The notes under the pieces were generated by a model. The model did no database searches. It was given only the letters and a program-made list of their open reading frames with translations, and had not been told where the DNA came from. This document shows, piece after piece, positions 9,508-16,276 of a DNA stretch of 64,000 bases; positions within the stretch are counted from its first letter, which is position 1, and each line of letters opens with the position of its first letter. Origin of the DNA: Escherichia phage vB_EcoM_H12; the sequence record PP952733.1; one strand, given 5' to 3'. The position numbers were made by a program, and so were the translations under genes.

Positions 9508-10923
9508 ATGAGCGAATTATTTAAACATGCGCACCTTCATGCAGGTCGAACTGAAAATGGTGCTGTAAACCATACTTCATCAATGTCTGCTCTGGTAGAC
9601 TTCTACAAAGCCGCTGGCTCAAGCCGTAGCAATGTAGAAATCTTACCAGACCTGTTCTACAAAGCTTTGCGTGAGGATGTTGATGTTGCAGTTCGTATTT
9701 TACTGCATATGCGAGATGTACGAGAAGGTATGGGTGAGCGTAAAGCTTTCCGAACTGTTTTACTTCAAGCGATTGAAGATAAAGTTTTAGAGCCTACACA
9801 GGTTCTTCGCATTATGGATAAGATTGCAGAACTTGGTCGTTTTGATGACTTCAAAATCTTCGTAGGTACTCGTTTTGAGACAGATGCCTTCAAACATTTA
9901 GAAGCAGCATTACTAGACCCTGCAACAGCAGGTTTAGCGGCTAAGTGGTTACCACGAGTAAAACCACGCCACAAACAGTTTGTAAAACGTTTCTGTAAGT
10001 TTGCAAACTTAAGTGAGAAGGAGTATCGCACGCTGTTATCTGCACTGTCTGATACGGTTGAGCAAAAAATCTCTGCTAATGAGTTTGGTAAGATTGACTA
10101 CAGCAAGATTCCTTCACTCGCTGCTGCACGTTACCAAAAGCTCTTTAACCGTAAAGATGGGGAACGTTACAAAGCTTACATCGAGTCCCTCTCAAAAGGT
10201 GAGGCTAAGATTAACGCTGGTGCTGTTTACCCATACGATGTGATTAAATCTATCAAGTATGGTAATGCAGATGTTGCTAATGAGCAGTGGAAAGCACTAC
10301 CAAACTGGATGGCAGAAGGTGAGAACATCTTGTGTATGACTGATGTTTCAAGCTCAATGTCTTGGGTGAATCTTGGTTCAATCACTGCCCTTGATATTGG
10401 TGTATCACTTGCTTTGTATGTAGCAGAACGCAACACTGGTTGCTTTAAGAATGAGTTAATGGTTTACTCAACAAACCCTCACTTCATCGAACTGAGTGGT
10501 GATTTACGAAACCGTCATCGTCAGGTAATGCGTCATGTTGAATACGGTTCAACTAACTTACAAGCAGCTTTTGACCGTATTCTTGAGGTAGGTAAGCGAA
10601 ACAACTTGACTCAGAAAGATATGCCAAGTAAGCTTATTATCTTCTCCGATATGGAGTTCAATCAGGTTGATGGAGCTAACGGTCGTACAAACTTTGAAGC
10701 AATTCAGAGTAAGTACAAAAAAGCTGGATACGAAATGCCACAACTAGTATTCTGGTACTTAGCAAACCGTAATGGTACTTGCGAAGTATCTGTTAAGGAT
10801 AATGGTGTAGCAATGGTATCAGGGTTCTCTCCAGCCACTTTAAAAGCTCTGCTTGGTGGTGAGAAGTTTGACCCAATCAGCATAATGCTCAAAGCGGTAA
10901 TGATTGACCGTTACATCTGGTAA
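9508..10923 (+). CDS. vWA-domain protein with MIDAS motif and long helical N-terminal domain; candidate Ro60-like (TROVE-vWA) protein
   Basis: DxSxS MIDAS motif (CMTDVSSSMSW) about residue 277 preceded by hydrophobic strand; about 270-aa N-terminal domain; TROVE-like assignment is inference from domain layout only. Confidence 0.6.
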   Translation: MSELFKHAHLHAGRTENGAVNHTSSMSALVDFYKAAGSSRSNVEILPDLFYKALREDVDVAVRILLHMRDVREGMGERKAFRTVLLQAIEDKVLEPTQVLRIMDKIAELGRFDDFKIFVGTRFETDAFKHLEAALLDPATAGLAAKWLPRVKPRHKQFVKRFCKFANLSEKEYRTLLSALSDTVEQKISANEFGKIDYSKIPSLAAARYQKLFNRKDGERYKAYIESLSKGEAKINAGAVYPYDVIKSIKYGNADVANEQWKALPNWMAEGENILCMTDVSSSMSWVNLGSITALDIGVSLALYVAERNTGCFKNELMVYSTNPHFIELSGDLRNRHRQVMRHVEYGSTNLQAAFDRILEVGKRNNLTQKDMPSKLIIFSDMEFNQVDGANGRTNFEAIQSKYKKAGYEMPQLVFWYLANRNGTCEVSVKDNGVAMVSGFSPATLKALLGGEKFDPISIMLKAVMIDRYIW

Positions 10924-10970: not shown

Positions 10971-11033
10971 GTTCTACATAGAAACGAAATGAGAGCTTTT
11001 CTAAGATACTGAAAAATATTTTAAAAAAGTTCT

Positions 11034-11062
11034 TGACAACCACTAAAAAATAATGTTAAAGT
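11034..11062 (+). promoter_or_regulatory. Promoter-like element upstream of tRNA array
   Basis: A-tract then TTGACA at 11034-11039; weak -10 (TTAAAG). Confidence 0.4.
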
Positions 11063-11088
11063 GGTTACATAGAGTTTGAAAAGTTTAT

Positions 11089-11165
11089 CTCTGTTTAGCT
11101 CAGCTTGGTAGAGCGTTCCGTTTGGGGCGGTAAGGCCGGAGGTTCAAGTCCTCCAACAGAGACCA
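11089..11165 (+). tRNA. tRNA-Pro (anticodon UGG)
   Basis: Cloverleaf folded by hand: 7-bp acceptor CTCTGTT/AACAGAG, anticodon loop TTTGGGG, T-arm GGAGG-TTCAAGT-CCTCC, CCA encoded. Confidence 0.85.
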
Positions 11166-11172
11166 AATTAAT

Positions 11173-11250
11173 GTTCCAGTAGACAAAATGGTAAAGTCAC
11201 CACTCTTTCAAAGTGGATATTTGAGGGTTCAAATCCCTTCTGGAACGCCA
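11173..11250 (+). tRNA. tRNA-Glu (anticodon UUC)
   Basis: Acceptor GTTCCAG/CTGGAAC, anticodon loop CTTTCAA, T-loop TTCAAAT, CCA encoded. Confidence 0.8.
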
Positions 11251-11257
11251 GTTTTGA

Positions 11258-11330
11258 CAGAAGACCAATTGCAGCAAACTTAATCTTATTCATCTGACAC
11301 GAAATCGGACAAAGAAGAGATTTGGTCTGG
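11258..11330 (+). ncRNA. Stem-closed RNA-like element A (CAGAAGACCAAT...TTTGGTCTGG)
   Basis: Terminal inverted repeat AGACCAA/TTGGTCT enclosing about 50 nt; conserved CAGCAA next to 5' arm; one of four related elements. Confidence 0.4.
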
Positions 11331-11341
11331 TCATTAAGAAT

Positions 11342-11418
11342 TGCGGGTATAGAGAAAGGGCGTCTCACATGTCTCATTAGCATGGTATCGGCAGGTTCGA
11401 CTCCTGCACCCGCCTCCA
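11342..11418 (+). tRNA. tRNA with anticodon CAU (Met or Ile2 type)
   Basis: Anticodon loop CTCATTA, T-arm GCAGG-TTCGACT-CCTGC, CCA encoded; first acceptor pair mismatched. Confidence 0.75.
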
Positions 11419-11424
11419 AATTTA

Positions 11425-11488
11425 CAGAAGACCGTTTACAGCAATATTTATTAAATTTTTAGCGGAAAAATTGAAAGATACGGTCTGG
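11425..11488 (+). ncRNA. Stem-closed RNA-like element B (CAGAAGACCGTT...ACGGTCTGG)
   Basis: Terminal inverted repeat AGACCGT/ACGGTCT; compensatory changes relative to elements A and C. Confidence 0.4.
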
Positions 11489-11501
11489 TAATACTAAACA
11501 T

Positions 11502-11578
11502 GGTTAGGAAGCACATAAGGTATGTGCGGTCGCCTGTTAAGCGAATGGCACAGGGTTCGAATCCCTGACTAACCGCCA
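11502..11578 (+). tRNA. tRNA-Asn (anticodon GUU)
   Basis: Anticodon loop CTGTTAA, T-arm CAGGG-TTCGAAT-CCCTG, CCA encoded. Confidence 0.8.
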
Positions 11579-11587
11579 AATTTAAAT

Positions 11588-11675
11588 GTGTCGTTATCCC
11601 GTAGATGGTAGCGGTGGGGACTGTAAATCCCTTGTCATTGAGACTCGGTAGGTTCGACTCCTACACGGCACACCA
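11588..11675 (+). tRNA. tRNA-Tyr (anticodon GUA), long variable arm
   Basis: Anticodon loop CTGTAAA, about 14-nt variable arm, T-loop TTCGACT, CCA encoded. Confidence 0.8.
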
Positions 11676-11681
11676 AATAAA

Positions 11682-11759
11682 GGTTATGTAGTTTAATCTG
11701 GTTAAAATACTCCCCTGTCACGGGAGATGATGAGGGTTCAAATCCCTTCGTAACCGCCA
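11682..11759 (+). tRNA. tRNA-Asp (anticodon GUC)
   Basis: Anticodon stem CTCCC/GGGAG with loop CTGTCAC, T-loop TTCAAAT, CCA encoded. Confidence 0.8.
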
Positions 11760-11845
11760 AATTATAATAAGTATTTCAAAATGATGTTTGAGAGGGCTAT
11801 TCAGCCCCTCCCTTAAAGAGTTTTTACGAGTATTCTTTAAAGGAG

Positions 11846-11918
11846 CAGAAGACCAAATTCAGCAAGTTACTTAAAATTTCAAGCCAATTTAATTTTGAAA
11901 AATTTAAAACTTGGTCTG
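11846..11918 (+). ncRNA. Stem-closed RNA-like element C (CAGAAGACCAAA...TTGGTCTG)
   Basis: Terminal inverted repeat AGACCAA/TTGGTCT; conserved CAGCAA after 5' arm. Confidence 0.4.
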
Positions 11919-11932
11919 ACTCAACAAATTTA

Positions 11933-12064
11933 CAGAAGACCGTTTACAGCAAAACTTAAACAATCTATTTCTCCGGTAAAGAAAAGGCGAAGGTTCGATT
12001 CCTTCACTCGGCAGATGTCGAGTTGGTGTAATGGTAGCACTTAAGATGATAAACAACGGTCTGG
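11933..12064 (+). ncRNA. Stem-closed element D with permuted tRNA-like module (Y RNA-like candidate)
   Basis: Closing stem AGACCGTT/AACGGTCT; inside, in order: T-arm GAAGG-TTCGATT-CCTTC (11989-12005), 7-bp hairpin ACTCGGC-AGAT-GTCGAGT (12006-12023), D-arm-like TGGTGTAATGGTAGCAC; no anticodon arm or CCA. Confidence 0.45.
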
Positions 12065-12065
12065 T

Positions 12066-12209
12066 AATTATCTTTGTAGATAAGTTATTAAGCTTACTTG
12101 TGAGTATGCGACCACAAAGGGTGAAAGGGTAAATTCTAGATTTAAACCCAACAACGCACATCGCTACAGACCTTAAGCAAGTCTGGGTAGCTTATCTACA
12201 AAGATAATT
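12066..12209 (+). repeat. 19-bp perfect inverted repeat (AATTATCTTTGTAGATAAG / CTTATCTACAAAGATAATT) enclosing about 105 nt
   Basis: Arms at 12066-12084 and 12191-12209 are exact reverse complements; inner hairpin CAGAC-CTTAAGCAA-GTCTG. Confidence 0.6.
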
Positions 12210-12223
12210 TAATGGAAGTGTAG

Positions 12224-12289
12224 CAGAATGGTGATGCGGCAGACTTTTAATCTGACAGGCGATGGGTTCGAATCCCTCCACTTCTACCA
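12224..12289 (+). tRNA. tRNA-Lys (anticodon UUU)
   Basis: Acceptor GGAAGTG/CACTTCT, anticodon loop CTTTTAA, T-loop TTCGAAT (T-stem has two mismatches), CCA encoded. Confidence 0.7.
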
Positions 12290-12293
12290 ATAT

Positions 12294-12370
12294 GGTTCAG
12301 TCGCAGATAAGGTAATGCAGGGGTCTCATAAGCCCTATGAATGTGGGTTCGATTCCCATCTGAACCTCCA
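12294..12370 (+). tRNA. tRNA-Met (anticodon CAU), second copy
   Basis: Anticodon stem with three consecutive G-C pairs, loop CTCATAA, T-arm GTGGG-TTCGATT-CCCAT, CCA encoded. Confidence 0.75.
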
Positions 12371-12371
12371 A

Positions 12372-12447
12372 GCTGGTATAGTTAAGAAGGTTATAACACT
12401 CCCCTGATAAGGGAACATCGGTGGTTCGATTCCACCTACCAGTACCA
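12372..12447 (+). tRNA. tRNA-Ile (anticodon GAU)
   Basis: Anticodon loop CTGATAA, T-arm GGTGG-TTCGATT-CCACC, CCA encoded. Confidence 0.8.
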
Positions 12448-12462
12448 ATTTCAATAAAGTTG

Positions 12463-12491
12463 TTGACATTGAGATGTGACCACTTTATAGT
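12463..12491 (+). promoter_or_regulatory. Sigma70-like promoter TTGACA-17-TATAGT inside tRNA array
   Basis: TTGACA at 12463-12468, TATAGT at 12486-12491, upstream A-tract. Confidence 0.55.
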
Positions 12492-12783
12492 AACTAAAAT
12501 ACTTCATAATATGTATAATTCAAACACCAATACATGAGCGTTAGACGTAACACAATGTGGGGAAATTTGTTGTACATATTCTGAATAGTTTTCGTTGCGT
12601 AGCGTCTATTTTGCAAATTTAAAATAAATGCAAACGACAATGTTTTTCTGGCAGTAGCTTGATAGGCTAAACACCAGTGAGGTCTTCCAATCCCTCATCA
12701 AAGAATTTGGCGTACTAGCCCACGGTATGATTAATAAGGTGGGCATCTTTAAGTACTTTCTAAGAGAGTCTTTAAAGATTAAT

Positions 12784-12860
12784 GCACCCTTAGTTCAATT
12801 GGATAGAGCAACGGTCTTCTAAATCGTTAGTTACAGGTTCGAATCCTGTAGGGTGTGCCA
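12784..12860 (+). tRNA. tRNA-Arg (anticodon UCU)
   Basis: Acceptor GCACCCT/AGGGTGT, anticodon stem ACGGT/ATCGT with loop CTTCTAA, T-loop TTCGAAT, CCA encoded. Confidence 0.8.
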
Positions 12861-13001
12861 AATAGTTAGCAGATTGCTTAGACGACCTTATCGGGTCTCC
12901 GTGTAAGGAGGTGGTCTGTATCTCATGTTTCCAGAACATGTAAATAATCTGAGAAGGGGCTTTACAGTGTTGCGAAAATACGGTAAGCTTCGAATTATAG
13001 T

Positions 13002-13084
13002 GTGGGACGATGTTAAGACTCTAAGGCATGAGCAACGGCCTCCAAAACCGTTTCAAAGGGGTTCAACTCCTCCGTCCCATGCCA
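13002..13084 (+). tRNA. tRNA-Trp-like (anticodon CCA), atypical expanded D region
   Basis: Acceptor GTGGGAC/GTCCCAT, anticodon loop CTCCAAA, T-arm AGGGG-TTCAACT-CCTCC, CCA encoded; about 26 nt between acceptor and anticodon stem. Confidence 0.45.
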
Positions 13085-13097
13085 AAGTCTTATTAGG

Positions 13098-13185
13098 GGT
13101 AGGTAGCGGCTAATGGCAGCCAAACAGTCTTGAAAACTGTTGCCACTGTAGAGATACGGTGAGGGTTCGACTCCTTTACTTACCG
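13098..13185 (+). tRNA. tRNA-Ser (anticodon UGA), long variable arm
   Basis: Anticodon stem ACAGT/ACTGT with loop CTTGAAA, long variable arm, T-loop TTCGACT; CCA not encoded. Confidence 0.75.
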
Positions 13186-13340
13186 CCTAATAAGATTTAA
13201 AACCAAGCTTCATTCGGATGTTGCTTTGGTATCCCTCGTGTATTGTCGTACACAAGTAAAGCACCTAGTAGGTGTCACGGAGAAGAGATAATATCAAGCT
13301 CTCCAAAGGTTCTAGTCACCGGATTAAACAAGACTATGCA

Positions 13341-13361
13341 AAGACCTATTTAGGTCTTTTT
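13341..13361 (+). terminator. Terminator-like hairpin inside tRNA array
   Basis: AAGACCT-ATTT-AGGTCTT followed by TTT; AT-rich stem so probably weak. Confidence 0.4.
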
Positions 13362-13440
13362 AGAGGGCTTCTAAGGTTATTACAGCTTGTTGTGGAACCT
13401 TGTTGCTTAGGTTCTTAGAAGTTCTCTAAAAAGATTTAAT

Positions 13441-13518
13441 GGGAGATTGACGGTAATTGGTAAACCTACCATCCTTAGAAGTTGGTGTTTGAGGGTTCGA
13501 ATCCCTTGTCTCCTACCA
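13441..13518 (+). tRNA. tRNA with anticodon UAG (leucine-type anticodon) but short variable arm
   Basis: Acceptor GGGAGAT/GTCTCCT, anticodon loop CTTAGAA, 5-nt variable loop, T-arm GAGGG-TTCGAAT-CCCTT, A73, CCA encoded. Confidence 0.7.
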
Positions 13519-13525
13519 AATTAAT

Positions 13526-13601
13526 GCAGGTGTAGCAAAATGGTTATGCGGCTGACTCTTAATCAGTAAGACGATGGGTTCAATTCCCTCCACCTGTACC
13601 A
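13526..13601 (+). tRNA. tRNA-Lys (anticodon CUU)
   Basis: Close paralog of the UUU tRNA at 12224; anticodon loop CTCTTAA; CCA encoded. Confidence 0.75.
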
Positions 13602-13605
13602 AATT

Positions 13606-13681
13606 GGGGTCATAGTTTATATGGTTAAAATTCGAGTTTTGCAAACTTGGGAACTGAGTTCAATTCTCAGTGACTCCACCA
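13606..13681 (+). tRNA. tRNA-Ala (anticodon UGC)
   Basis: Acceptor GGGGTCA/TGACTCC, anticodon loop TTTGCAA, T-arm CTGAG-TTCAATT-CTCAG, CCA encoded. Confidence 0.8.
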
Positions 13682-13687
13682 ATTAGT

Positions 13688-13762
13688 GCATCCATAGTTT
13701 AAACGGGAAAATTACAGTCTTCCAAACTGAGGTTGAGGGTTCGATTCCCTCTGGATGCTCCA
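13688..13762 (+). tRNA. tRNA-Gly (anticodon UCC)
   Basis: Acceptor GCATCCA/TGGATGC, anticodon loop CTTCCAA, T-arm GAGGG-TTCGATT-CCCTC, CCA encoded. Confidence 0.8.
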
Positions 13763-13769
13763 AATTAAT

Positions 13770-13845
13770 GCTCCTATCGTATAATTGGCTATTACGGTTG
13801 CCTTGTAAGCAACTTATCAGGGTTCGAATCCTTGTGGGAGCACCA
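13770..13845 (+). tRNA. tRNA-Thr (anticodon UGU)
   Basis: Acceptor GCTCCTA/TGGGAGC, anticodon stem GTTGC/GCAAC with loop CTTGTAA, T-loop TTCGAAT, CCA encoded. Confidence 0.8.
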
Positions 13846-13850
13846 ATTCA

Positions 13851-13936
13851 GAGGTCAAGTGAAAGACCGCTTTGAGTCAACTGAAGACCGTAACAAATCC
13901 CACGGAGTTGAGTTAGCGGCACAACTTCAGACCTCT
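13851..13936 (+). ncRNA. Structured hairpin element between tRNA-Thr and tRNA-Val
   Basis: 6-bp closing inverted repeat GAGGTC/GACCTC around about 75 nt with nested complementary segments (TCAACT/AGTTGA) and a GAAGACCGT motif; no canonical T-loop. Confidence 0.35.
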
Positions 13937-13941
13937 TTCAT

Positions 13942-14016
13942 ACTCGCTTAGTTTATATGGTAAAACATCACCCTTACAAGATGAAGAAAAAGGTTCAAGC
14001 CCTTTAGTGAGTACCA
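13942..14016 (+). tRNA. tRNA-Val (anticodon UAC)
   Basis: Acceptor ACTCGCT/AGTGAGT, anticodon loop CTTACAA, T-arm AAAGG-TTCAAGC-CCTTT, CCA encoded. Confidence 0.7.
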
Positions 14017-14017
14017 T

Positions 14018-14095
14018 GTTCCAGTATCCCAATTGGCAGAGGATGCAAGCTCAAACCTTGTACTAGTGACGGTTCGAATCCGTCTTGGAACACCA
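14018..14095 (+). tRNA. tRNA with anticodon CAA (leucine-type anticodon) but short variable arm
   Basis: Acceptor GTTCCAG/TTGGAAC, anticodon stem GCAAG/CTTGT with loop CTCAAAC, 6-nt variable loop, T-arm GACGG-TTCGAAT-CCGTC, A73, CCA encoded. Confidence 0.7.
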
Positions 14096-14100
14096 ATTTT

Positions 14101-14176
14101 GCAGGATTAGTTCAAATGGATAGAGCAACAGTCTACGAAGCTGTTAATAGGGGTTCGAATCCCTTATCCTGCGCCA
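14101..14176 (+). tRNA. tRNA-Arg (anticodon ACG)
   Basis: Acceptor GCAGGAT/ATCCTGC, anticodon stem ACAGT/GCTGT with loop CTACGAA, T-loop TTCGAAT, CCA encoded. Confidence 0.8.
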
Positions 14177-14195
14177 ATTTAAAGAGGCTATTTAG

Positions 14196-14753
14196 ATGAG
14201 ATATTTGAAGTATGCTTCATGGATTTTCTTAGCTTTGTTAGAGCCATTTGCAGCAATCTTAGCAGTTATCTTAGCACCTTTTGTAGTTCCATTCTACAGT
14301 GAAAAGAAAGGACACTTACCTTTCGGCTTCAGATGGATGGAAACATATGACAACCCAATTGATGGTGATGAAGGTCATGTTGAACGATGGGCTAAGATTA
14401 GAAAGATTGGTAAGCTTGGTGTCTATATGCAGAGAGTTGGTTGGCTCTGGAGAAACAAAGCTTATAACTTCTCTTACCATGTGTTAGGAAGAGATGTAAA
14501 AGATGTTACTAAGTGGAAAGGTAATATCAATGTAAGTTCTAACCCTGAAGATAATCAGACAGGTTATCTCCTAATGTGGAACAGTAATGCTTGGGGATTA
14601 TTCGCTTTTATCCCATCAATTAAAGTCTTTGGTAAGCAATTCTACTGGAGAATTTATGTTGGATGGAAACTTAAAAGTGTTGTTCCAAAAGAAAGAGCAT
14701 TCTCAAGGGAAAGAGTTATGTTGGCATTCTTTATTCATCCACTAAGAAAGTAA
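14196..14753 (+). CDS. putative membrane protein (185 aa) encoded inside the tRNA array
   Basis: AAAGAGG RBS; N-terminal hydrophobic helix (WIFLALLEPFAAILAVILAPFVVPF); Trp-rich. Confidence 0.55.
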   Translation: MRYLKYASWIFLALLEPFAAILAVILAPFVVPFYSEKKGHLPFGFRWMETYDNPIDGDEGHVERWAKIRKIGKLGVYMQRVGWLWRNKAYNFSYHVLGRDVKDVTKWKGNINVSSNPEDNQTGYLLMWNSNAWGLFAFIPSIKVFGKQFYWRIYVGWKLKSVVPKERAFSRERVMLAFFIHPLRK

Positions 14754-14761
14754 AGATTTAA

Positions 14762-14837
14762 AGGGGATTAGTTTACAAGGTTAAAACCTCGGTCTTTGAA
14801 ATCGAAGAAGTTGGTTCAATTCCAACATCCCCCGCCA
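14762..14837 (+). tRNA. tRNA-Gln (anticodon UUG)
   Basis: Anticodon stem TCGGT/ATCGA with loop CTTTGAA, T-arm GTTGG-TTCAATT-CCAAC, CCA encoded; first acceptor pair mismatched. Confidence 0.75.
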
Positions 14838-14839
14838 AT

Positions 14840-14918
14840 GCTCCATTACTCCAATTGGTAGAGAGGCCAGACTTAAAATCTGTGTTATGTATCGGTTCGA
14901 ATCCGATATGGAGTACCA
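14840..14918 (+). tRNA. tRNA with anticodon UAA (leucine-type anticodon) but short variable arm
   Basis: Acceptor GCTCCAT/ATGGAGT, anticodon loop CTTAAAA, about 7-nt variable loop, T-arm ATCGG-TTCGAAT-CCGAT, A73, CCA encoded. Confidence 0.7.
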
Positions 14919-14923
14919 AATTT

Positions 14924-14999
14924 AGCGGTATAGCATAACTGGCAATGCAGCAGTCTCTGAAGCTGTCTTATTAAGGTTCAAATCCTTATGCCGCTGCCA
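14924..14999 (+). tRNA. tRNA-Gln (anticodon CUG)
   Basis: D-stem GCAT/ATGC, anticodon stem GCAGT/GCTGT with loop CTCTGAA, T-loop TTCAAAT, CCA encoded. Confidence 0.7.
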
Positions 15000-15030
15000 C
15001 TTCTAAGGATTCTTACGAGAGTCCTTAAAT

Positions 15031-15106
15031 GTGGCCTTATCATAAATGGTAATGACCCATGCTGTGAACATGGTCTATACGGGTTCAAATCCCGTAGGTC
15101 ACCCCA
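15031..15106 (+). tRNA. tRNA-His (anticodon GUG)
   Basis: Acceptor GTGGCCT/AGGTCAC, anticodon stem CCATG/CATGG with loop CTGTGAA, T-arm ACGGG-TTCAAAT-CCCGT, CCA encoded. Confidence 0.8.
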
Positions 15107-15111
15107 ATTTA

Positions 15112-15188
15112 TAGTCCAAGTAGCTTATATGGTTAAAGCGCGTGTCTGAAAAACATGAGAAGAGGGTTCAAATCCCACTGGACTACCA
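15112..15188 (+). tRNA. tRNA-Phe (anticodon GAA)
   Basis: Acceptor TAGTCCA/TGGACTA, anticodon loop CTGAAAA, T-loop TTCAAAT. Confidence 0.75.
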
Positions 15189-15204
15189 ATTTCAAAGGTG
15201 CTTA

Positions 15205-15939
15205 ATGAAAGAGATGACAGAACAAGGTAAGGAGATTTTTAATCTCTTAAAAACTGGTAAAGGGTTATCTAACCCCCTTATTACTGGTGCAGCAGTTCTC
15301 GGTGGAACAGTAGCTGCCTCTACATCACTTGTAAGCTCTATTAGCTCTGTAACAGACCCTACAATAAAGGATAAGCTTATTGCTGCTGGACTTACAACAG
15401 TTCTGCTTAACAGCTTTACCACAAGTCTGACAAGCACTACATCAACTACTAAAACACTGACAGATTACGGTCAAAAGTCCATTGATGAGTTTTCATCACG
15501 TATGCAGGTAGCAAAAGGTTATTCTAATGTTATGGGTGCAGCAGGTGAACAAGTTGGCTGTACACCATTTAGTGGTATTATGGGTGTTGCTACAGAGTAC
15601 GGTCAAAAAGCTATTGACACAATTAACAGCACACTAGACGGTGTTAATGATGTATTAAGTGACTTACAAGACGCTATTGACAAAGGTCTTGATACTATTT
15701 CTGATTTAGCTAACCAAGCTGTTAGTAAGATTAATGAAGGTATCTCGAAGATTACAGCTTATGCAGATGAAGTTGTGCAGATGATTGAAGAAGAAGCTGC
15801 CCTTATTGCAGAGTACCTTAAAACAAATATCAATGGGTTCTTAGCAGGTATCTTACCAGACTGGTTTGATGATGCTTGTAAAACTGGTGTAATTGATACT
15901 ATTGCAACACCAGAGATGAAGAACGCATTACAGAAATAA
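15205..15939 (+). CDS. hypothetical Ser/Thr-rich protein (244 aa) inside the tRNA array
   Basis: Start moved from track 15142 to ATG 15205 (AAAGG RBS) so it does not overlap tRNA-Phe; low-complexity S/T segment. Confidence 0.5.
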   Translation: MKEMTEQGKEIFNLLKTGKGLSNPLITGAAVLGGTVAASTSLVSSISSVTDPTIKDKLIAAGLTTVLLNSFTTSLTSTTSTTKTLTDYGQKSIDEFSSRMQVAKGYSNVMGAAGEQVGCTPFSGIMGVATEYGQKAIDTINSTLDGVNDVLSDLQDAIDKGLDTISDLANQAVSKINEGISKITAYADEVVQMIEEEAALIAEYLKTNINGFLAGILPDWFDDACKTGVIDTIATPEMKNALQK

Positions 15940-15941
15940 AT

Positions 15942-16034
15942 GGAAGATTAACCCTAAAAGGTAAGGGAGCAGTTTGCTAAACTGCCAGTAGCTGAGAAAT
16001 CGGTGTACCAGTTCAAGTCTGGTATCTTCCTCCA
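15942..16034 (+). tRNA. tRNA-Ser (anticodon GCU), long variable arm
   Basis: Acceptor GGAAGAT/ATCTTCC, anticodon stem GCAGT/ACTGC with loop TTGCTAA, long variable arm, T-arm ACCAG-TTCAAGT-CTGGT, CCA encoded. Confidence 0.8.
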
Positions 16035-16038
16035 ATTT

Positions 16039-16114
16039 GAATCCGTGACAGAAATGGATATGTACCTGTCTGCAAAACAGGTTTATAAGGGTTCGAGTCC
16101 CTTCGGATTCTCCA
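16039..16114 (+). tRNA. tRNA-Cys (anticodon GCA)
   Basis: Acceptor GAATCCG/CGGATTC, anticodon stem CCTGT/ACAGG with loop CTGCAAA, T-loop TTCGAGT, CCA encoded. Confidence 0.8.
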
Positions 16115-16276
16115 AGTTATTTTACTCTCTCTCAATTAAAATAATAATAATGCCCTGCTATAAGTATTCTTCCTTTCGCTACCGAAGAGTATTTTTAGAC
16201 AGGGCTTTTTTACAGAGTTATACTTTATAAGAAGACTTATACAGTATGTCTCTGACGTACATTGTGGTTTCTCCTT

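Follow-up and report, generated by a model that had tools for sequence, protein, structure and literature searches.

Three leucine tRNA genes without a long variable arm in the tRNA array of an enterobacterial phage

Introduction

Textbooks count the long variable arm among the hallmarks of bacterial tRNA-Leu. Leucine tRNAs with a short variable loop (type I) are known from mitochondria, and the case of Streptomyces coelicolor, reported in 2019, was called rare in bacteria (PMC6614811). In a stretch of 64,000 nucleotides (nt) from Escherichia phage vB_EcoM_H12 (PP952733.1; the whole stretch is referred to as the window throughout), a sequence-only reading based on hand folding had pointed to three tRNA genes with the leucine anticodons UAG, CAA and UAA but short variable loops, and had proposed that the phage leucine tRNAs either are structurally atypical or represent decoy or reassigned tRNAs. 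Here we describe a computational analysis of these three genes, from which we consider it probable that they encode working leucine tRNAs of an armless design, charged by the host's leucyl-tRNA synthetase (LeuRS).

Several described systems are comparable. The type I tRNA-Leu(CAA) of S. coelicolor is of bacterial type, carries a short variable loop and occurs beside type II tRNA-Leu and a single LeuRS in the same cytoplasm (PMC6614811). In contrast to the phage tRNAs, which strictly keep A73 and would be served by an unadapted enterobacterial LeuRS, the Streptomyces system has an adapted LeuRS and leaves A73 unused. Mitochondrial tRNA-Leu(UUR) is likewise armless and relies on A73 and A14 (PMC9976931), although it has its own LeuRS, unlike the phage case. 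Arm-deleted "minimalist" variants of Escherichia coli tRNA-Leu are still substrates of E. coli LeuRS (EcLeuRS) provided that neither A73 nor the D/T-loop interactions are disturbed (Larkin et al., 2002; Asahara et al., 1993, 1998; Tocchini-Valentini et al., 2000, as summarised in PMC9976931); these were laboratory constructs studied in vitro or in suppressor tests, whereas the phage tRNA-Leu look like natural versions of them. In addition, a short-variable-loop tRNA-Leu(TAG) in the accessory array of a mycobacterial tRNA gene cluster was mentioned in passing and never tested (PMC6582537).

Among phages, the corresponding genes of the Felix O1 group are annotated as tRNA-Leu in GenBank, and a study of phage Sf14 analysed homologous tRNA-Leu without comment on the arm (PMC12482277). 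Our literature search, a limited full-text search that does not prove the point unpublished, returned no paper stating that phage leucine tRNAs, those of T5 included, are armless, or that they are widely so while the serine and tyrosine tRNAs are armed.

Results

Structure of the three tRNA-Leu genes

ARAGORN and Infernal recovered the three genes (Table 1) in exact agreement with the hand-folded version, with the same coordinates, anticodons, anticodon loops (CTTAGAA for UAG, CTCAAAC for CAA and CTTAAAA for UAA), lengths of 75-76 nt before CCA and variable loops of 5-7 nt, and automated folding by ARAGORN revealed no long variable arm in any of the three. The variable loops UGUUU (5 nt, UAG), ACUAGU (6 nt, CAA) and GUUAUGU (7 nt, UAA) contain no stem; ARAGORN itself counts 4, 5 and 7 nt because it adds a 26:44 pair. 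All three genes match positions 1-71 of the 71 positions of the Rfam tRNA model RF00005, for which the gathering threshold is 29 bits, with E values between 5e-6 and 9e-9. None of them has a variable region of more than 10 nt forming a stem-loop, which characterizes class II tRNAs, and each combines a leucine anticodon, a short variable loop, A73 and a tRNA-Leu-like body, which characterize type I tRNA-Leu. With regard to the earlier argument that a long variable arm would find no room, the adjoining tRNA genes lie 1-7 nt from the tRNA-Leu genes on the sides that had been named.

The CAA species has the D arm UCC-CAAUUGGCAGA-GGA, G1-C72 and A73, and the UAA species the D arm CUC-CAAUUGGUAGA-GAG and A73 together with G1·U72, which is also found in E. 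coli leuZ. The UAG species shares G1·U72 and A73 and has the D loop UAAUUGGUAAA, a U30·U40 mismatch in the anticodon stem and one extra nucleotide in the 8-13 region, beside the D stem. Its anticodon loop (CUUAGAA) carries A37 in place of the G37 of E. coli leuW (UUUAGGU), so that m1G37 cannot form; A37 is also the majority state in the armless tRNA-Leu(UAG) of other phages. In the CAA species (CUCAAAC), C38 replaces the A38 of the host, and A36A37A38, a motif that MiaA and TrmL use, is therefore incomplete (for the TrmL recognition rule, see PMC9976931).

No further tRNA-Leu, and hence no class II tRNA-Leu, was detected by ARAGORN in the window, and the part beyond the window (45000-87697) of a complete genome with 97.7% identity (E9) contains no tRNA of any kind. 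The absence of a separate class II tRNA-Leu, as first noticed from the sequence, was thereby upheld for the window as well as for the rest of this closely related genome.

Leucine character of the tRNA bodies

The phage tRNAs were aligned with E. coli leuZ, leuX and leuW, which carry the same three anticodons. The host plan consists of a 7-bp acceptor stem, U8, R9, a D arm made up of a 3-bp stem and the 11-nt loop (G/A)AAU(C/U)GGUAGA, the anticodon arm, a 13-15-nt variable stem-loop ending in U, the T arm, A73 and CCA; the phage tRNAs follow the same plan, with the replacement of the variable stem-loop by 5-7 unpaired nucleotides as the sole architectural change. Phage and host species have in common the anticodons, the D-arm architecture, near-identical D loops (CAAUUGGUAGA for UAA, CAAUUGGCAGA for CAA and UAAUUGGUAAA for UAG, compared with GAAUCGGUAGA, AAAUCGGUAGA and AAAUUGGUAGA in E. 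coli), A73, A15:U48 and the T loop UUCRAxU, while the host tRNAs differ in their length (85-87 nt), their variable stem-loop and their anticodon loops. The atypical shape proved not to be peculiar to this phage, since it also occurs in T5 and in many uncultivated phages.

Each of the three tRNAs carries A73, the discriminator expected of a substrate of an E. coli-type LeuRS. U8, A14, A15 and a U as the last nucleotide of the variable loop are present throughout, providing for U8:A14 and the A15:U48 Levitt pair; these four positions are invariant in an alignment of 57 armless tRNA-Leu (see below), although A15 and U48 are also common in the other tRNAs of this AT-rich phage. The 11-nt D loops follow the pattern xAAUUGGYARA on a 3-bp D stem, with A14, A15, G18G19 and A20a in place and the extra nucleotide of the UAG species as the point to note. 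The T loop is UUCGAAU in all three, with U54:A58, U55 and C56.

Because several other tRNAs of the phage also have 3-bp D stems, the leucine specificity of the bodies was examined by further methods. The D-loop motif AAYYGGYARA is present in 3/3 leucine tRNAs and 0/23 other tRNAs of the window; in tRNAs of unrelated viral contigs, it was found in 12 of 26 leucine tRNAs that had not been selected for the motif, versus 9 of 371 non-leucine tRNAs. An 11-nt D loop closed by a 3-bp D stem occurs in 83% of armless and 87% of long-armed tRNA-Leu, compared with 5% of other class I tRNAs. Profile hidden Markov models (HMMs) built, for leucine, from long-armed viral tRNA-Leu only and from 19 other isotypes, with the anticodon and the variable region removed, ranked leucine first for all three window tRNA-Leu. 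For the window tRNAs at large, the same models put the correct isotype in first place in 15 of 25 cases. For the homologous tRNAs of the Mooglevirus Sf14, the isotype scores of tRNAscan-SE are likewise highest for leucine in all three cases (PMC12482277). A whole-sequence nearest-neighbour comparison with 501 viral tRNAs, again excluding anticodon and variable region, was too noisy for statements on ancestry, and a blastn search with tRNA-Leu(UAA), a short query against the huge database of complete E. coli genomes, gave no match.

Anticodon change in another class I tRNA of the array was rejected as the principal source of the leucine tRNAs, given their leucine-specific D arm, U48, A73 and HMM ranking. 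As a separate observation, the acceptor stems of tRNA-Glu(UUC) and tRNA-Leu(CAA) have the same 5' strand, GTTCCAG, and agree in six of the seven bases of the 3' strand, a likeness that could reflect duplication followed by anticodon change within the array, or coincidence.

Conservation among relatives and comparison with phage T5

Region 11000-16200 of the window aligns over its full length, at 96-98% identity, with more than 200 Felix O1-like myoviruses (Felixounavirus, Ounavirinae) that infect E. coli, Salmonella and Shigella. The annotation of these phages usually includes three tRNA-Leu genes. Judged by this identity, the window is part of an approximately 88-kb virulent enterobacterial phage genome of the genus Felixounavirus. 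Relatives were recovered through a DUF7338 gene embedded in the array (loci L126-L152), and all recovered Felixounavirus contigs contain three leucine tRNAs of 77-79 nt in addition to long-armed tRNA-Ser and tRNA-Tyr. The UAA species is represented by one allele in 22 related contigs, from which the window differs in a single D-loop base. The CAA species is present in 21/21 related contigs, with changes confined to the variable loop apart from a variant in one contig that has G73 instead of A73. This exchange would be expected to abolish leucine identity, and the variant may stem from a sequencing error or represent a copy in decay.

The UAG species exists in three forms among the relatives, namely the window type, a stem-swapped type and an unrelated armless type. 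In the stem-swapped allele, the whole anticodon stem is changed from CCAUC/GUUGG to UCUCG/CGAGA in a fully compensatory manner. In four contigs (L129, L134, L138 and L140), the window-type gene is replaced by the unrelated 77-nt armless tRNA-Leu(UAG) (GCACCTATAGCCCAAYTGGTAGAGGC...), whose D arm and variable loop resemble those of armless tRNA-Leu from Actinobacteria and other viral contigs, which suggests that tRNA cassettes are exchanged between phages.

Phage T5 differs from the window in having two leucine isoacceptors, UAG and UAA, and lacking CAA. Both T5 species are 77 nt long and have A73, a variable loop of 5 nt and, on a 3-bp D stem, a D loop of 11 nt (GAAUUGGCAUA). The UAG species of T5 is 84.6% identical to that of the window and shows the same U30·U40 mismatch as well as one compensatory stem change, while the UAA and CAA species of the window fall into a different sequence subgroup from those of T5, with the D loop CAAUUGGYAGA and variable loops of 6-7 nt. 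A scan of the whole T5_ev219 genome detected no class II tRNA-Leu; its only two leucine tRNAs are both armless.

Distribution in uncultivated phages and cellular genomes

Two pattern scans of IMG/VR were carried out with 120 loci each, so that the following viral counts are lower bounds and do not represent frequencies. From 54 uncultivated viral contigs, at least 88 armless tRNA-Leu were obtained, with the anticodons CAA, UAG, UAA, AAG, GAG and CAG. Among the matches listed, armless tRNA-Leu stand beside long-armed tRNA-Leu in 22 of 59 loci, and often all leucine isoacceptors of a phage are armless. In the contigs among these matches, leucine tRNAs with long or short arms have A73 in 229/229 and U48 in 227/229 cases, compared with approximately 59% and 25-39%, respectively, in the other tRNAs of the same contigs, in which the long arm is kept in 59 of 60 tRNA-Ser and 29 of 29 tRNA-Tyr. 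The three window tRNAs and 54 others, 57 armless tRNA-Leu in total, conform to one cloverleaf, in which the variable loop is short, and could be aligned without rearrangement. In this set, which was collected with ARAGORN and thus selected for cloverleaves, 97.6% of the alignment cells pair, versus 34-46% with the partners slid, and 20/20 pairs change on both sides.

In cellular genomes, the pattern matches were mostly chance sequence. Single chromosomal genes for armless tRNA-Leu(UAA/CAA) with the D arm GCC-CAAUUGGCAGA-GGC were found in Gordonia, Herbiconiux, Nocardia, Mycobacterium and Rhodococcus (loci including L277, L279, L304, L315 and L349), and such tRNA-Leu also occur in arrays of 25-29 tRNAs in metagenome-assembled genomes of Acidobacteriota (L333 and L350). 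Judging from these matches, type I tRNA-Leu seems to be more widely spread among Actinobacteria than the one published case, from Streptomyces, would indicate.

Codon usage and coding sense

The leucine codons in 56 long open reading frames (ORFs) of the window are UUA (26.5%), CUU (27.5%), CUG (15.3%), UUG (13.8%), CUA (11.1%) and CUC (5.8%), compared with 68% CUG, 3% UUA and 2% CUA in six E. coli K-12 genes. The phage anticodon set comprises UAA, CAA and UAG and omits CAG, the abundant host species. When phage nrdA/nrdB were compared with E. coli NrdA/NrdB, leucine stood opposite UUA in 7/15, UUG in 6/17 and CUA in 5/12 positions, versus a background of 9%; the remaining positions showed Ile, Val or Phe. 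As these codons align mostly with leucine, their coding sense is leucine. UAG, CAA and UAA are sense anticodons (CUR, UUG and UUR) and not of a suppressor or reassigned kind. AlaRS and SerRS, the other anticodon-independent synthetases, are excluded, as both G3:U70 and a long arm are absent from all three tRNAs.

The surrounding tRNA array

The features of the array are compiled in Table 1. The serine and tyrosine tRNAs are indeed long-armed, as had been noticed from the sequence. The further statement that every other amino acid is represented by a conventional tRNA is inexact, as the array covers 19 amino acids; tRNA-Trp, of which T5 has one, was not found in the array by ARAGORN, and some departures from convention, such as 3-bp D stems and mismatches, are seen in several of the remaining tRNAs. 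A tRNA-Met(CAU) call of ARAGORN, in which the first base is unpaired and the spacer has 3 nt, has no Infernal tRNA match at E ≤ 1 and scores poorly against all isotype HMMs; by these measures it is a doubtful or very atypical tRNA. Two gaps of the array give weak, partial tRNA-like Infernal matches, which may be remnants of lost tRNA genes.

Directly 5' of tRNA-Leu(UAG) lies a near-perfect hairpin of approximately 90 nt with an RNA minimum free energy (MFE) of -37.6 kcal/mol (z = -5.0; 0 of 200 shuffles fold equally well). It could be a terminator, an RNase III-type processing site or a regulatory element for the downstream tRNA block. The DUF7338 protein encoded inside the array is annotated as a membrane protein in relatives, and homologues with 58-62% identity were found in phage contigs of 120-180 kb. 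A protein with DUF2828 and DUF7788 domains is encoded directly upstream of the array.

Table 1. Positions of the tRNA-Leu genes and of further features in and around the tRNA array of the window
Feature	Position	Strand	Size or content	Source or score
tRNA-Leu(UAG), armless, type I-like	13441-13518	+	78 nt incl. CCA	ARAGORN; Rfam 40.0 bits
tRNA-Leu(CAA), armless	14018-14095	+	78 nt incl. CCA	ARAGORN; Rfam 43.6 bits
tRNA-Leu(UAA), armless	14840-14918	+	79 nt incl. CCA	ARAGORN; Rfam 49.9 bits
tRNA array	11089-16114	+	26 tRNA genes, 19 amino acids, small ORFs in between	ARAGORN; Rfam; Felixounavirus identity
tRNA-Tyr, long arm	11588-11675	+	88 nt	ARAGORN
tRNA-Ser, long arm	13098-13187	+	90 nt	ARAGORN
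tRNA-Ser, long arm	15942-16034	+	93 nt	ARAGORN
tRNA-Glu(UUC)	11173-11250
tRNA-Met(CAU), doubtful or very atypical	11342-11418	+		ARAGORN
Partial tRNA-like match in array gap	11956-12006	+		Infernal, 22 bits, E ~0.4
Partial tRNA-like match in array gap	13004-13078	+		Infernal, 23 bits, E ~0.4
Hairpin	13350-13439	+	~90 nt	MFE folding
DUF7338 protein	14196-14753	+	185 aa
DUF2828 and DUF7788 domain protein	9508-10923	+	471 aa

Discussion

The gene structure, the conservation among relatives, the covariation, the identity elements, the distribution and the codon usage agree with leucine tRNAs in which the variable arm has been dispensed with. The view that the phage leucine tRNAs are structurally atypical is supported: they are tRNA-Leu bodies in which nothing but the variable stem-loop is missing, and they are conserved, covary as cloverleaves and keep the elements read by LeuRS. 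We regard it as probable that the host LeuRS charges them and that they serve in translation. The bodies would be those of bacterial class II tRNA-Leu, in which a loop of 5-7 nt has taken the place of the stem-loop of 13-15 nt. An E. coli-type LeuRS recognizes its tRNA by the discriminator A73 together with elements of the tertiary core and the elbow (U8:A14, A15:U48, G18G19 and A20a in a large D loop, and U54:A58), a published identity set, and makes use of neither the anticodon nor the arm. For the E. coli enzyme, arm and anticodon are described as dispensable, arm-deleted variants being active if A73 and the elbow are intact (PMC9976931), and its identity set is also listed elsewhere (PMC6614811). 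Because all LeuRS elements are retained, the host enzyme is expected to leucylate the phage tRNAs. The UAA and CAA species would then read UUA and UUG, and the UAG species CUA, CUG and possibly CUU, codons that account for a far larger share of the leucine codons in the AT-rich phage than in its CUG-reliant host.

SerRS and bacterial TyrRS rely on the long arm, which LeuRS, as the only one among the three class II synthetases, does not need; the arm could therefore be lost from tRNA-Leu alone, which would give rise to the phage pattern of armless tRNA-Leu beside armed tRNA-Ser and tRNA-Tyr. The classical identifications of T5 tRNAs are said to have involved charging with E. coli enzymes; as T5 has only armless leucine tRNAs, such charging would constitute direct evidence. 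The T5 species identified in this classical work include tRNA-Leu (PMC4810235).

Several points weigh against charging by the host enzyme. In the study of Fan et al. (2019; PMC6614811), leucylation of the type I tRNA-Leu(CAA) from S. coelicolor failed with EcLeuRS, which is described as charging only type II tRNA-Leu; a crystal structure shows the C-terminal domain in contact with arm residues 47f-47i (cited in PMC6614811), and for its type I substrate, Streptomyces LeuRS depends on a particular leucine-specific domain (PMC6614811). The S. coelicolor result does show that tolerance of armlessness is not automatic; it need not transfer to the phage tRNAs, because that system does not use A73. 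The published data on armless leucylation by EcLeuRS thus point both ways, with PMC9976931 in favor and PMC6614811 against. Further reservations come from the genes themselves. The UAG and CAA species have the two lowest Infernal tRNA scores of the array, the former with its extra nucleotide near the D stem and its U·U mismatch; the HMM margins for leucine are small (2-4 bits); the covariation set carries the selection for cloverleaves already mentioned; and the MFE folds of the three unmodified sequences are not cloverleaves and are weak (z from -0.3 to -1.5), although MFE folding is uninformative for unmodified AT-rich tRNAs.

A second explanation, to which we assign a small probability, is that the missing arm is itself an adaptation, by which functional leucine tRNAs resist nucleases or toxins that recognize the type II shape or cut the long arm. 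Such nucleases would stem from host defence or be induced by the phage, which could translate on while the host tRNA-Leu is destroyed. In its specific form, for which the chance seems slightly smaller again, the complete armless leucine sets of Felix O1 and T5 would constitute an anti-defence or takeover adaptation and would still be charged by the host LeuRS, which alone ignores the arm. The recurrence of armless tRNA-Leu in many unrelated viral contigs, often for all isoacceptors, argues for this, as do its occurrence beside long-armed tRNA-Leu in 22 of the 59 listed loci and the replacement of one armless tRNA-Leu(UAG) by an unrelated armless one in some Felixounaviruses; since the replacing allele is armless too, the shape was kept through gene exchange. 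This reading agrees with all the observations above, although its support is circumstantial. T-even infection is said to entail the cleavage of a host tRNA-Leu, of which our literature search found no report, and E. coli and Salmonella are not known to possess a nuclease directed specifically at type II tRNA-Leu. It is established that defences target tRNAs and that phages respond with tRNA countermeasures (PMC10264068), a preference for type II tRNAs is described for human Schlafen nucleases (PMC13191261), and bacterial Schlafens act in phage defence, but the paper on the latter gives no leucine or type II specificity (PMC13056530). In addition, the arms are kept in tRNA-Ser and in tRNA-Tyr, contrary to what a general evasion of type II recognition predicts unless synthetase constraints forbid their loss, and armless tRNA-Leu is a normal chromosomal gene in Actinobacteria; on both grounds, relaxed constraint may be enough.

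It is improbable, in our estimation, that the three genes give rise to tRNA-shaped RNAs that LeuRS charges poorly or not at all, either as decoys for nucleases, modification enzymes or LeuRS, or as decaying relics. The failure of EcLeuRS on the Streptomyces type I tRNA-Leu (PMC6614811), the low Infernal scores, the irregularities of the UAG species, the weak thermodynamic folding and anticodon loops that are unlike those of the host (A37 for G37 in UAG, C38 for A38 in CAA) would fit such RNAs. However, retention of the genes is strict in all relatives and accompanied by compensatory changes in the stems, their anticodons suit codons over-used by the phage, and T5, which has only armless leucine tRNAs, is listed as encoding tRNA-Leu (PMC4810235). 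Moreover, the same design recurs in many unrelated phages, with A73 and U48 invariant in the armless species, which is expected of LeuRS substrates and not of relics. Charging with an amino acid other than leucine, by which UUA, UUG and CUA would be recoded in phage or host proteins, is very improbable: the unusual shape and the single contig with the G73 variant of tRNA-Leu(CAA) speak for it, whereas these codons are heavily used and align mainly with leucine in NrdA/NrdB, neither the G3:U70 of tRNA-Ala nor the long arm of tRNA-Ser is present while all LeuRS determinants are, other synthetases mostly need their own anticodon according to established identity rules (PMC9976931), and recoding would be ambiguous because host tRNA-Leu reads the same codons. 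The decoy or reassigned tRNAs envisaged in the sequence-only reading are therefore disfavored.

Working leucine tRNAs charged by the host LeuRS thus represent a plausible and largely conventional explanation, which raises a testable question about enterobacterial LeuRS and tRNA-directed conflict. Phages of the Felix O1 group and T5 carry armless leucine tRNAs only, and many uncultivated phages do likewise. For genome annotation, the consequence is that an armless tRNA-Leu called in a phage array is a real gene rather than an error. If the host LeuRS charges the phage tRNAs, they would constitute natural proof that the arm is dispensable for an enterobacterial LeuRS in vivo, and would provide ready-made material for studies of LeuRS recognition, editing and tRNA engineering. 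If they are not charged, or if their shape protects them from tRNA-targeting nucleases, they would reveal a new facet of the contest between phage and host over tRNAs.

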